Positions 3,444 to 6,882 of a DNA stretch of 64,000 bases are shown here, piece after piece (the first letter of the stretch is position 1; each line of letters begins with the position of its first letter). Source of the DNA: Candidatus Poribacteria bacterium (lineage in GTDB: Bacteria > Poribacteria > WGA-4E > WGA-3G). Made by a program: the position numbers and the translations under genes. The DNA is taken from positions 455,937 to 519,936 of the forward strand of contig OZ242029.1 of NCBI GenBank assembly GCA_965205015.1. The letters run 5' to 3'. The notes beneath the pieces are model-generated. The model was not told the origin of the DNA and did no database searches. It was given only the letters and a program-made list of their open reading frames with translations.

Positions 3444-4598
3444 GTGTTGTTTCGATTCTCTGGTAAAGTGGAGGATAACTTGAGCCGAAATCATGCCGAT
3501 GTCATCATTATCGGTGCGGGCATTATCGGATGCAACATCGCCTACGATCTCGCCAAACGGAACGTGAAATCGTTAGTGATTGATAAAGCATCCGCCGTTG
3601 GAACAGAAGCCTCATGGGCAGGTGCAGGAATTTTAACCTCACACGCCTCAACAGATGCGCCGTACCCAACCTTGTGTCGAGCGAGCCTTGCACGCTATCC
3701 GGCGTTAGCCGAAGAACTCCGAGCAGAAACCCTGATAGATATTGAGTTGATCCAATCCGGAACGCTGTCAGTATTCTTCAATCCAGCGGAAGCGGCAGGA
3801 TTAATCGGTCTCGCAGATCGGCGTGTGAAACGCGGCTTCTCAACCGAAGTTCTGACGGCGGAACAGGCATGGCAGTTGGAACCTGCGCTCTCAAAATCTA
3901 TTGCCGGTGCTGTTCTGTTCCCCGAAGACGCGCAAGTCCGTAATCCGAAGATGGTGACCGCACTCGCCAAGGGTGCAGCAAAACTCGGGGCGCAATTTCA
4001 AGTGGGCAATCCTGTTGCCGATTTTATCCGAGTGAGTGAGGGCGATAGAGAGCACGTTGTCGGTGTCGTCGTTAACAGTGAAACCTATTACGCCGACACG
4101 TTCGTGATCGCAGCAGGCTGCTGGACAGGGACGCTTACGGCTCAACTGGATGTCCCAATTCAGGTTGAACCCGCGAAAGGCCAGATCGTCCTCGTTGAAG
4201 CGATGCCACCGCCGTTCGAGCGAACGATTGATGGACTTGGCATCTACATCGTACCGAGAGCCGACGGTAAGATTCTACTCGGAGCGACGGTCGAATTTGT
4301 CGGTTATGACAAGACCGCCACTGTGGAGGGTGCTAAGCAGATGATCGACGCAGGAATTGCCATCGCGCCGCAACTCGCGCACAGTACTTTCGTGCAAACA
4401 TGGGCAGGTTTACGGCCCCATGCCAAAAAAGGACCGCTTCTCGGTTACCTACCGGGGTATGACAACGTCGTTTTGGCATCAGGGCATTTCAAAAATGGTA
4501 TTCTCCTCGCGCCGATTACAGGACACCTTATCGCTGAACTGATCACCACAGGACAGACATCGTTGCCCTTGGAACCTTTTCAGCCAACGACGGTGTAA
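3444..4598 (+). CDS. FAD-dependent oxidoreductase, DAO family (glycine / D-amino-acid oxidase-like)
   Basis: A DVIIIGAGIIGCNIAYDL Rossmann dinucleotide-binding motif lies close to the N-terminus, and length is about 370 aa. The true start may be TTG at about 3480, preceded by GGAGG. Confidence 0.8.
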   Translation: MLFRFSGKVEDNLSRNHADVIIIGAGIIGCNIAYDLAKRNVKSLVIDKASAVGTEASWAGAGILTSHASTDAPYPTLCRASLARYPALAEELRAETLIDIELIQSGTLSVFFNPAEAAGLIGLADRRVKRGFSTEVLTAEQAWQLEPALSKSIAGAVLFPEDAQVRNPKMVTALAKGAAKLGAQFQVGNPVADFIRVSEGDREHVVGVVVNSETYYADTFVIAAGCWTGTLTAQLDVPIQVEPAKGQIVLVEAMPPPFERTIDGLGIYIVPRADGKILLGATVEFVGYDKTATVEGAKQMIDAGIAIAPQLAHSTFVQTWAGLRPHAKKGPLLGYLPGYDNVVLASGHFKNGILLAPITGHLIAELITTGQTSLPLEPFQPTTV

Positions 4599-4689
4599 CG
4601 GACTATCTTTGCCTGTTTTGGAAACCCAATTTAAAGGTGTGAAATATTTTTTTAATTTTAAATGAATTGTTTCAAAATATATGGGTTAA

Positions 4690-4915
4690 ACTTTAAGTCA
4701 GTGACCTCGCCCTAAAGGGCGAGGCTTGTGCGAAGCGTATACCAAACGTTCACTCCACAAGTTAAACCATTGACTACAGTAAACTATCGCAGTATCTTAG
4801 CGTGGTAGCCAGTGCTATGTTTCAGATGCTCCCCAAGTCTGATTCCTCTCCGATACTGTGATCTGGATGGGGCAATATACAACCCGTAAGGGAGATTACA
4901 AACTCTGTTTGTGCC
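4690..4915 (+). ncRNA. Putative omega-RNA (OMEGA guide RNA scaffold) for the downstream IsrB
   Basis: This is about 220 nt of non-coding, structured sequence between the left hairpin of the element (CCTCGCCC-TAAA-GGGCGAGG, 4705-4724) and the isrB start. In IscB/IsrB systems the omega-RNA is encoded in exactly this position. It is not verified by covariance. Confidence 0.3.
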
Positions 4916-5957
4916 AGTCGTTGATCAAAACCAAAATCCACTGATGCCAACAACACCACAGCGTGCGGGAAAGTGGATAAAATCAGGAAAAGCCACACCC
5001 TTTTGGCGGAACGGTGTGTTTTGTGTCCGTCTGAATATAGAGCCTTCGGATAGATATAAGCAAGATATTGCTGTCGGCGTAGACCCCGGCAGTAAGAAAG
5101 AGGGCTTTACTGTGAAGTCTGAGGCACACACGTATTTGAATGTGCAAGCGGACGCACACCATAAAGTCGGTCAGAAAATAAAAAAGCGTCATGAGTTGCG
5201 GAGAGGTCGACGTTCCCGTAAGTGTCCGAATCGGAAAAACCGAACCAATCGTCTTGCAAACAGAGAGCGTATCCCCGCAGGCACACGCGCAAGATGGGAT
5301 TGGAAGTTGCGTATTCTTGACTATTTATCGAAACTCTATCCAATCACGCATGTGTGTGTTGAGGATATAAAGGCACGGACGATACAGCGTGCGAAGAAGT
5401 GGAATCAGTCGTTTAGTCCTTTGGAAGTCGGTAAGCAGTGGTTTTACACTGAAGTCAAAAAGCGGTGGGAGCTCCTAACACTTCAAGGATGGGAAACAAA
5501 GGAGATACGCGATAGATTGGGTCTGAAGAAATCGTCTGATAAACTATCAGAAACATTCGATGCACATTGTATTGATAGTTGGTGCTTAGCATATCAGACC
5601 ATCGGCGGTAAATCCATTGTAGACAATACTTCAATCTTCTGTATATCGCCTATCCCTATACGCAGGCGGGAACTCCACCGTCAGAACCCACAGAAAGGTG
5701 GCAAGCGTCCCCGTTATGGGGGCACAAGGTGTCTTGGTATTCCGAAGAATACATTAGTGAAGCATATCACAAAAGGACTCCTACGCGTTAGTGAATACCA
5801 AAAAGGTTGCTTGACCCTAAGTGAAATCCACAGTAGTAAACAAGTTATACTTAGGGCGAAACCAGACAGCTATAAGATTTTGAAAAAACTTAACTTTAGA
5901 TATTCATAAAACAGCGTCTACATCTCCGCCCTAAAGGACGGAGTTTTGACGCTGAAG
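4700..5957 (+). mobile_element. IS200/IS605-family-like non-autonomous element carrying isrB (no tnpA)
   Basis: The element is bounded by related subterminal hairpins sharing CGCCCTAAAGG: left 4705-4724, right 5912-5954 (CAGCGTC...CTCCGCCCTAAAGGACGGAG...GACGCTG). Boundaries are approximate. Confidence 0.45.
4911..5909 (+). CDS. isrB: IsrB (HNH-less IscB homologue; OMEGA RNA-guided nickase)
   Basis: 332 aa. It has an N-terminal PLMP domain (NPLMPTTPQRAGKWIKSGKA), RuvC-I (VGVDPGSKKEGFTV), an arginine-rich bridge helix (RRGRRSRKCPNRKNRTNR), RuvC-II (ITHVCVEDIKA) and RuvC-III (FDAHCIDSWCLA). There is no CxxC...HNH insert, so this is IsrB rather than IscB. Confidence 0.75.
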   Translation: MPVVDQNQNPLMPTTPQRAGKWIKSGKATPFWRNGVFCVRLNIEPSDRYKQDIAVGVDPGSKKEGFTVKSEAHTYLNVQADAHHKVGQKIKKRHELRRGRRSRKCPNRKNRTNRLANRERIPAGTRARWDWKLRILDYLSKLYPITHVCVEDIKARTIQRAKKWNQSFSPLEVGKQWFYTEVKKRWELLTLQGWETKEIRDRLGLKKSSDKLSETFDAHCIDSWCLAYQTIGGKSIVDNTSIFCISPIPIRRRELHRQNPQKGGKRPRYGGTRCLGIPKNTLVKHITKGLLRVSEYQKGCLTLSEIHSSKQVILRAKPDSYKILKKLNFRYS

Positions 5958-6291
5958 AATTGATAATCTTTTTAATGATCGAAAAAGGGTATAAAACACT
6001 ACCCTTATCTGACGAATAAACTTAGAAAGGAGTTTTCAAAATGCGTCAGTACGTTTTGTGTTTAACGGAGGCAATGCCTCACGCTGGAGATGAACGTGAC
6101 AATTCTTTGGGGGATTGGATCTCCCTGAAGGCACGGGCATCTAAAATTGCCAATGCATGTCGTTATTGGACGAAGACCCGATTATGGAGAAGGCACAGAC
6201 CGAGGAGTGAACAAGCAGGCATCCTCCGTTACGGAACGGAAGGAGGGGTGCGCGCCTTCGCTTGAGAAACTCCTCTCTTGAGGAGACAAGC

Positions 6292-6882
6292 ATGTTACAC
6301 ACTGACGAACAGTTGATGCTCTCTGTGAAGGATGGAAACAGAGATGCATTCCGAATTTTAACCGAGCGGCATTATACAAACACTTTAAATTTTATCTATC
6401 GATTTGTCAAAAACCGGACGCTTGCGGAAGACCTCTGTCAAGAGACGTTCCTACGGGTGTGGCGCTGTGTGCCAACCTATCGCCCAATTGCGAAATTTAG
6501 AACGTTCCTCTATCACATCGCCAAAAACGTTTGTTTGAAACAGTTAGCGAAGGACCAGAGAACACCGCAGATCGAATCTTTAGATGCACCCTATAGCGAT
6601 GAAGATGAAAACTCTCACCCCGTTGCGGTTGCTGTCGCAGACACCAACTACTCTCCAGAGGCGCTGTTGATCGCCAAGGAGACTTACGAGGCAATTCAGG
6701 CAGCAATCAACAAACTGTCGCAAGAACATCAAGTCGTGTTTCGGCTGACAGAAGTTCAAGGATTGTCTTACCAAGAAGTTGCCGAGATCGTTCAATGTCC
6801 GATTGGCACTGTTGCCTCACGTAAAAACGCTGCGATTCGACAACTCCGGAAATTTTTGGCACCCTACAGGACCAGTTTATAA
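6292..6882 (+). CDS. ECF (sigma-70 family) RNA polymerase sigma factor
   Basis: Region 2 (FRILTERHYTNTLNFIYRFVKNRTLAEDLCQETFLRVW) and region 4 (LTEVQGLSYQEVAEIVQCPIGTVASRKNAAIRQLRK) are both present. The start is taken at the ATG encoding MLHTDEQ. No anti-sigma gene is adjacent. Confidence 0.85.
   Translation: MLHTDEQLMLSVKDGNRDAFRILTERHYTNTLNFIYRFVKNRTLAEDLCQETFLRVWRCVPTYRPIAKFRTFLYHIAKNVCLKQLAKDQRTPQIESLDAPYSDEDENSHPVAVAVADTNYSPEALLIAKETYEAIQAAINKLSQEHQVVFRLTEVQGLSYQEVAEIVQCPIGTVASRKNAAIRQLRKFLAPYRTSL

Follow-up and report, generated by a model that had tools for sequence, protein, structure and literature searches.

A predicted IsrB OMEGA element of the IS200/IS605 type, with its omega-RNA scaffold, in a Candidatus Poribacteria chromosome

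The stretch of DNA considered here (the window) comprises 64,000 nucleotides (nt) of a Candidatus Poribacteria bacterium, positions 455,937 to 519,936 of contig OZ242029.1 in assembly GCA_965205015.1, and the locus of interest lies at 4697 to about 5960 on its plus strand. A single long open reading frame (ORF), 4911-5909, is found on that strand between 4599 and 6040. It is preceded by about 208 nt encoding a structured RNA and is enclosed by two similar hairpins, and the whole is interpreted as an OMEGA element built around isrB, the gene for an IscB homologue without an HNH domain. Such an element had been proposed by an earlier inspection of the letters without database searches, called the sequence-only reading below. 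For comparison, 304 related loci were found in Poribacteria genomes and 80 were fetched, all of them from metagenome-assembled genomes of Candidatus Poribacteria. The features at the locus are as follows, in window positions; TAM stands for target-adjacent motif.

4697-5959 (right boundary 5959 or 5960), plus strand: probable whole non-autonomous IS200/IS605-type OMEGA element, delimited by column conservation in 77-81 loci
4677-4696, plus strand: predicted 20-nt guide segment ATATATGGGTTAAACTTTAA, flanking DNA outside the left end, assigned from IsrB architecture
4697-4904, plus strand: omega-RNA scaffold of about 208 nt, from covariation, fold and a sub-threshold HEARO match
4705-4724, plus strand: left-end subterminal hairpin CCTCGCCC-TAAA-GGGCGAGG, a perfect stem of 8 base pairs (bp) read from the sequence
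4831-4872, plus strand: pseudoknot between CCCCA (4831-4835, in the loop of hairpin 4822-4842) and TGGGG (4868-4872)
4883-4894, plus strand: terminal hairpin CCC-GTAA-GGG (4883-4892), overlapping the Shine-Dalgarno sequence AAGGGAG (4888-4894)
4905-4907, plus strand: ancestral start codon, lost, CTG here and ATG in relatives, from the comparison of 81 loci
4911-5909, plus strand: isrB ORF, 332 amino acids (aa) from GTG 4911, from the ORF list, family matches and fold
4938-4949, plus strand: PLMP motif, residues 10-13, in the N-terminal PLMP domain (Pfam RRXRR; N-terminus aligns to DtIsrB)
5076-5096, plus strand: RuvC-I motif GVDPGSK, residues 56-62, with D58 at 5082-5084, aligning with VDPGAK of DtIsrB
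5178-5267, plus strand: arginine-rich bridge helix region, residues 90-119, from alignment and model
5361-5576, plus strand: RuvC-II E151 (5361-5363) to RuvC-III H219 (5565-5567) and D222 (5574-5576), with an HNH-less linker
5718-5906, plus strand: C-terminal beta-rich domain corresponding to the WED/TAM-interacting region, from the model and its full-length structural alignment to DtIsrB
5912-5954, plus strand: right-end structure, outer stem CAGCGTC (5912-5918) and GACGCTG (5948-5954) around the hairpin at 5924-5943
5924-5943, plus strand: right-end hairpin CTCCGCCC-TAAA-GGACGGAG, with one C-A mismatch
5960-5963, plus strand: TTGA abutting the right end, predicted to be the TAM when the empty site is restored

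The 332-aa product has the order of PLMP, RuvC-I, arginine-rich bridge, RuvC-II and RuvC-III that the sequence-only reading had described. A Pfam scan returned RRXRR alone (PF14239; E = 2.2e-31, residues 2-155), and the best sequence match in the Protein Data Bank (PDB) was DtIsrB of Desulfovirgula thermocuniculi (8DMB; E = 2e-34, residues 1-275), with far weaker matches to IscB structures, limited to the N-terminus. An AlphaFold model of the protein (predicted local distance difference test score, pLDDT, 84; predicted template modelling score, pTM, 0.79) also had DtIsrB as its top fold match, over the full length (8dmb_P; E = 4.2e-25, template modelling (TM) scores 0.76/0.76, 345 columns), and RuvC resolvases were among its other matches. 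Homologs number 3485 at E <= 1e-3, and a representative search gave 1281 cluster representatives. Residue conservation was read from an alignment of the window protein with 18 relatives (19 sequences, 30-80% identity), and the catalytic D/E/H/D set that had been expected is conserved: D58, E151 and D222 are invariant and H219 is conserved in at least 90%. Four bridge-helix arginines (R100, R101, R103 and R108) are invariant as well, and helices are predicted by the model at 85-101 and 111-117 in this region. Towards the C-terminus the model has beta strands at 281-331, with a pLDDT of about 86-93 over residues 271-332, and a family motif, GG.R..YGGT, is conserved.

Whether the protein might be an IscB, able to cut both strands, whose HNH domain is degenerate or had been overlooked was considered because of the match between its N-terminal half and the NCBIfam profile guided_IscB (NF040563; 91.5 bits) and because several IscB structures were matched. 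That score lies below the cut-off of 175 bits and covers only profile positions 3-157 of 314, so that the equivalog assignment does not apply. The linker between RuvC-II and RuvC-III (E151 to H219) is 67 residues long, is without any cysteine and is colinear with that of DtIsrB. No HNH domain was matched in Pfam at E <= 1 in the isrB product, and no CxxC motif was found. Normalised to the target, the TM score is 0.76 for IsrB and 0.36-0.63 for the IscB structures, the latter being lower because IscBs carry the extra HNH domain. On the profile score, the cysteine-free linker and the TM comparison, an HNH-bearing IscB was rejected, and its probability is considered negligible. Altogether, a PLMP domain, a split RuvC with bridge helix, no HNH, a C-terminal TAM-interacting domain and an upstream omega RNA were found, and the protein is, as judged from its family matches and modelled fold, an IsrB, an HNH-less OMEGA nuclease of the IscB family, in agreement with the sequence-only reading.

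The omega RNA had been expected in about 220 nt of structured DNA between the left hairpin and the start codon. A structured RNA does precede isrB, and its covarying fold occupies exactly 4697-4904; the hairpin, however, lies inside it, because the conserved RNA starts at 4697, 8 nt before the hairpin. The scaffold consists of an outer stem, the left-end hairpin, two nested stems, a long-range 14-bp stem enclosing two hairpins, the pseudoknot and the terminal hairpin. A 56-pair structure was built by hand from the window's own fold and examined in an alignment of 49 distinct upstream regions from the fetched loci, with partners slid by 1-3 columns and with shuffles as controls. Pairing is possible in 91.8% of cells, compared with 32-45% when partners are slid, and compensatory changes on both sides are seen in 33 of the 56 pairs, including one pair of the pseudoknot; none of 500 shuffles reached the observed values. 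RNAalifold recovered 27 pairs, 18 of them covarying, the number being limited because MAFFT gaps broke several helices. Folded singly, the window leader reproduces the helices of the hand-built structure, and the 214-nt leader reaches -71.1 kcal/mol compared with -52.6 +/- 4.4 for shuffles (z = -4.2). In the pseudoknot, 98.8% of cells pair; U-A takes the place of its A-U pair in 16 of the 49 sequences, and its four C-G pairs are nearly invariant. The stem of the terminal hairpin covaries among subfamilies (CCCG..GGG, CTCC..GGAG, CTCG..GAG), and in DtIsrB the terminal hairpin and the Shine-Dalgarno sequence are contacted by the PLMP domain (Hirano et al. 2022, PMC9581776).

The covariance-model search that the sequence-only reading had suggested gave a full-length match, at a score under the Rfam threshold. 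HEARO (RF02033) was the sole match in a scan of 4000-6600, at 4697-4899 on the plus strand with 21.7 bits (E = 0.1). Seven of ten related loci gave similarly sub-threshold matches of 19-40 bits at the same relative position, the best reaching 40.2 bits (E = 8.5e-5), and in the window and in these seven the match begins at the first base of the left end. This argues for a distant relative of HEARO that is no member by the Rfam criterion. A plain 5' untranslated region (5'UTR) or an attenuator at 4697-4904 was rejected: conservation starts at the transposon end and the region travels with the element to sites that are unrelated, and the covariation and the similarity to HEARO also speak against it.

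The limits of the element were drawn from 77-81 aligned Poribacteria loci. On the left, column identity rises from about 0.35 to at least 0.95 at 4697 (GTCA...), and on the right it falls from about 0.85 to about 0.45 past 5960 (...GAAGA[A/T]T); outside both ends, sequences are unrelated from locus to locus. The roughly 1.25-kb tnpA-less IS200/605-like element that had been drawn between the hairpins is thus kept in kind, with the hairpins marking its ends, and is corrected in extent to 4697-5959/5960, or 1263-1264 bp. Both hairpins are where they had been described, the left one a perfect 8-bp stem and the right one, inside CAGCGTC/GACGCTG, interrupted by its mismatch. Across the family, compensatory changes occur at seven of the eight pairs of the left-end hairpin, which is the initial stem-loop in the omega RNA and presumably also the hairpin bound by TnpA. 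A CTAAAG loop is common to the two hairpins and is also part of the family consensus of the right end, and, in those loci where the right-end hairpin was readable, its stem resembles the left-end stem of the same element. Subterminal hairpins at both ends without inverted terminal repeats are characteristic of IS200/IS605 elements, whose two ends are read by one and the same transposase. The element is regarded as non-autonomous because no tnpA was seen in it or found near related loci.

How such an element would act can be proposed from its flanks. The 20 nt before the left end are different in every locus, and a 20-nt guide lies 5' of the scaffold in the IsrB architecture (PMC9581776); on this basis the guide is predicted to be 4677-4696. 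At the other end, 68 of 77 distinct sites (88%) have TGA within the first 9 nt past the right end, compared with 11.7% of control windows, and the TTGA/TGA of the right flanks agrees with NTGA/TTGA, the published TAM of DtIsrB (PMC9581776). The occupied site would be without a TAM, and only the excised joint a target, because the left end begins with GTCA. Restorative homing has been established for TnpB and IscB (review PMC13565253) and may extend to IsrB.

By analogy with DtIsrB and with studies of IscB and TnpB, transcription, guide use, nicking and homing would proceed in the following way. A transcript starting in the left flank would carry about 20 nt of it (4677-4696) as guide, joined to the scaffold of about 208 nt, whose first stem-loop would be the left-end hairpin and whose last hairpin would cover part of the isrB ribosome-binding site. 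The scaffold would bind the 332-aa IsrB, with its PLMP domain, split RuvC and bridge helix, no HNH and a C-terminal TAM-interacting domain. The resulting ribonucleoprotein (RNP) would recognize a guide match followed by NTGA, that is, the joint ATATATGGGTTAAACTTTAA|TTGA, present only once the element has been excised. IsrB would then nick the non-target strand at the joint, and repair from the sister copy would restore the element, while the occupied site would be protected by having GTCA, not NTGA, after the guide match. That the region is a non-autonomous IS200/IS605-type OMEGA element in the Candidatus Poribacteria chromosome, working by this mechanism, is given a probability of about 0.85.

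The state of this copy bears on that estimate. An ATG stands at the position of 4905 in 63 of 81 loci, where it opens a protein beginning MFVPV..., two codons upstream of GTG 4911, and among these loci the window alone has CTG. The sequence-only reading was right that GTG 4911 opens the 332-aa ORF, but the family start is this upstream codon. The same insertion, with the same neighbours and flanks, is present in two other strains, one 99.4% identical and also with CTG (L081), the other 94% identical and with ATG, at L082:580-582 (L082). Because site, neighbours and flanks are shared, the insertion must be old and fixed, and because L081 has CTG while L082 has ATG, the loss of the start codon must be recent. 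The only in-frame starts left are GTG 4911 and ATG 4944. Public NCBI/ENA gene calls give a 321-aa protein from ATG 4944 because the ancestral ATG is mutated; in the collection searched it has no name. Expression of the longer protein must now rely on GTG 4911 and may be reduced in this copy.

Several observations weigh against the interpretation proposed above. GTG 4911 lies 16 nt after the Shine-Dalgarno sequence; initiation at ATG 4944 would remove the first strand of the PLMP domain, and deletion of that domain abolishes nicking by DtIsrB (PMC9581776). The HEARO gathering threshold, 83 bits, was reached neither by the window (21.7 bits) nor by the relatives (up to 40.2). No tnpA lies inside the element, where the other ORFs of at least 40 aa all overlap isrB and none exceeds 78 aa. 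No HUH-type ORF was detected within 1.3 kb of the 80 related loci, a weak negative given by a HUH/Tyr motif heuristic only. A Y1 HUH transposase TnpA is absent from the element, a trans-acting TnpA elsewhere not having been searched for and the window's ORFs not having all been scanned with Pfam. Since no tnpA was found, current mobility, and hence homing, can only be putative. An empty site was sought in metagenome contigs with the pattern GGGTTAAACTTTAA-N0-8-GATAATCTTTTT, which gave 0 matches; for that reason the right boundary is given as 5959 or 5960, and the TAM register is provisional. A scan of 4400-6300 for sigma-70 promoters and terminators gave nothing beyond shuffle expectation, with no promoter upstream of the guide. 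Lastly, an nhmmer profile of the family matched only the known copy in the window.

The lost start codon could also mean that the element is a decaying relic, a pseudogene in the making that yields no functional RNP. The change from ATG to CTG at 4905 is unique among the 81 loci apart from the 99.4%-identical strain, and the long spacing of the alternative GTG fits this view. Against it, the gene has no frameshifts or internal stops and keeps every conserved residue, GTG 4911 retains the whole protein except its first two residues (Met-Phe), and purifying selection has been long-term; the start codon was lost so recently, however, that decay would not yet show. Such decay is rather improbable. 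The description as a 'complete programmable nickase locus' is weakened by the mutated ancestral start, protein and scaffold being otherwise intact; RNA guidance and nicking would be expected by analogy with DtIsrB.

Selection on the locus can be read from the same-site ortholog. Compared with L082, isrB has 0.196 differences per synonymous site (pS) and 0.024 per nonsynonymous site (pN), a pN/pS of 0.12, and the neighbouring host gene is similar, with a pN of 0.024 too; against paralogs, pN/pS is 0.07-0.20, with synonymous divergence (dS) saturated. Nine differences are found in the 208 nt of scaffold (4.3%), compared with 19.6% at synonymous sites. Immediately before the left end, 48 nt (within 4647-4696) are 100% identical in this strain diverged by about 6%, and one difference occurs in the 100 nt that follow the right end (5961-6060), while intergenic 4599-4646 has diverged by roughly a quarter. 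Such invariant flanks suggest constrained signals, for instance a promoter or guide in the left flank and, in the right one, the 5' region of a small-ORF/ECF-sigma operon (ECF, extracytoplasmic function). By these comparisons, the isrB gene and its RNA have been functionally maintained at a fixed site; their maintenance at present would depend on initiation at GTG.

Maintenance at a fixed site raises the question of whether the host has domesticated an immobilised IsrB, keeping the RNP for guided nicking or binding at some other site, without homing. The same insertion in strains 0.6% and about 6% diverged, a pN/pS similar to that of the neighbouring host gene, the near invariance of 48 nt upstream and 100 nt downstream of the ends, and the failure to find tnpA in or near related elements are all compatible with this idea. 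However, the catalytic residues are intact, unlike those of known nuclease-dead domesticated relatives, and the two transposon ends have been kept together with the TAM-like flank. The guide matches its own flank only, which follows from its construction, and no alternative target was identified. Moreover, as for a mobile element, the family is multi-copy with differing flanks in related genomes, 11 of the 80 fetched loci lying on one chromosome (OZ253447.1), each with different flanks; it is the window copy that sits at the same site in three strains. Domestication is judged improbable, even more so than decay, and the OMEGA element acting by guide, nick and homing is retained as the preferred interpretation.

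The surroundings of the window copy are given by two further features.

Ends at 4598: gene for an oxidoreductase of the D-amino acid oxidase/flavin adenine dinucleotide (DAO/FAD) type, host neighbour 5' of the element
Starts at 6041: 74-aa ORF, host neighbour 3' of the element, followed by an ECF-type sigma-70 gene

The 74-aa ORF has an AAGGAG Shine-Dalgarno sequence 8 nt before its ATG at 6041 and overlaps the start of the ECF-type sigma-70 gene (Sigma70_r2/r4; window 6020-6882). The pair has the layout of an operon of small regulator and sigma factor, and is kept in L081.

The insertion sites of other family members are not random. In 42 of 76 loci, an ORF of at least 100 aa begins at a start codon no more than 10 nt from the right end, compared with 9% at random positions. 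Among 73 distinct sites, 41 lie between a host Shine-Dalgarno sequence and a genuine start codon, all co-oriented (e.g. L015:4040-4050, L030:4040-4050, L058:4036-4046), and none is at the start of a gene on the opposite strand (0/73). A GGAG-type Shine-Dalgarno sequence is found in the last 25 nt before the left end in 40 of 76 left flanks, usually 4-16 nt away. Of ten such host ORFs that were examined, eight contain Pfam domains (including TonB-dependent receptors, MatE, a phosphorylase and flotillin) and two gave no match; the N-termini of these ORFs are signal-peptide-like or lie close to the first domain. About ten further sites have an open frame in the same orientation, 100 codons or longer, that runs into the left end.

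Two side observations concern the element's borders with host genes. The sites with a frame running up to the left end (L021, L022, L025, L029, L034, L043 and L074; 100-490 codons, co-oriented) form a second class, in which the TAM-like TGA may serve as the host stop codon, since the right flank starts with TTGATAG or similar in several of them. Furthermore, in most relatives (e.g. L009, L010 and L030) the isrB ORF enters the right-end hairpin and stops about 26-30 nt before the host start codon, and translational coupling of isrB to the host gene is conceivable there; in the window the isrB stop is 50 nt before the right end.

The window copy is not at a start codon but 80 nt upstream of the operon of small ORF and ECF sigma factor. 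Part of the placement bias can be put down to the overlap between the TAM-like motif (TTGATG/ATGA) and start codons and to selection against insertions within genes, which leaves unaccounted for why so many genes tolerate the separation of their Shine-Dalgarno sequence from ATG. Transcription of the guide from host promoters is a plausible idea. It can be speculated, with some doubt, that promoter-less elements use host 5'UTRs to express guide, omega RNA and isrB, with a TTGATG/ATGA target tuned to start codons and host initiation rewired as a result. If true, these elements would rewire the translation initiation of dozens of host genes, and the window copy would be a looser example. Literature searches on start-codon insertion by IS605/IscB elements gave nothing relevant.

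The element is an IsrB OMEGA element of a known kind, and nothing is changed in what is known about IsrB. Elements of this kind were reportedly described by Altae-Tran et al. in 2021. Literature searches returned nothing relevant linking IsrB with Poribacteria, and what the locus adds is a well-delimited, compact IsrB from a mesophilic, uncultivated phylum of sponge symbionts, 332 aa long and encoded together with a scaffold of about 208 nt. Some 300 natural variants, an RNA structure supported by covariation and a predicted TAM are raw material for the engineering of small nickases. The same-site orthologs offer a tnpA-less IsrB with its RNA under purifying selection after fixation, which bears on how OMEGA nucleases persist without a transposase, and the bias towards start codons is a testable lead on how guides get transcribed.

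The closest known system is DtIsrB with its omega RNA (8DMB; Hirano et al. 2022, PMC9581776), which has the same order of PLMP, RuvC-I, bridge helix, RuvC-II, linker, RuvC-III and WED-TAM domains at a similar size (332 aa here and about 350 aa in DtIsrB). Common to both are an RNA immediately upstream that ends at the start codon, contains one or more pseudoknots and places its terminal hairpin at the Shine-Dalgarno sequence, as well as NTGA/TTGA beside the element. They differ in sequence (about 28% identity in the structural alignment), in scaffold length (about 208 nt compared with 262 nt) and in host, a mesophilic marine sponge symbiont here and a thermophile for DtIsrB; in addition, the start codon is mutated in this copy, whose protein is known from sequence and model. 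A PLMP/RRXRR N-terminus, a split RuvC and an omega RNA encoded upstream are common to the window system and to IscB (e.g. OgeuIscB, PDB 7UTN/7XHT), whereas IscB has an HNH domain and cuts both strands and the window protein is without one. HEARO (RF02033), the omega RNA that accompanies IscB, aligns over its full length from the left end, and its outer stem and first hairpin correspond to those here. Finally, the tnpA-less TnpB/IscB elements of IS200/IS605 type are alike in having similar subterminal hairpins, no terminal inverted repeats and no target duplication, a fixed short motif at one end, multiple copies in unrelated flanks and a flank-derived guide. Compared with these, no cognate Y1 transposase has been identified for the window family, and more than half of its copies lie between a host Shine-Dalgarno sequence and the start codon.

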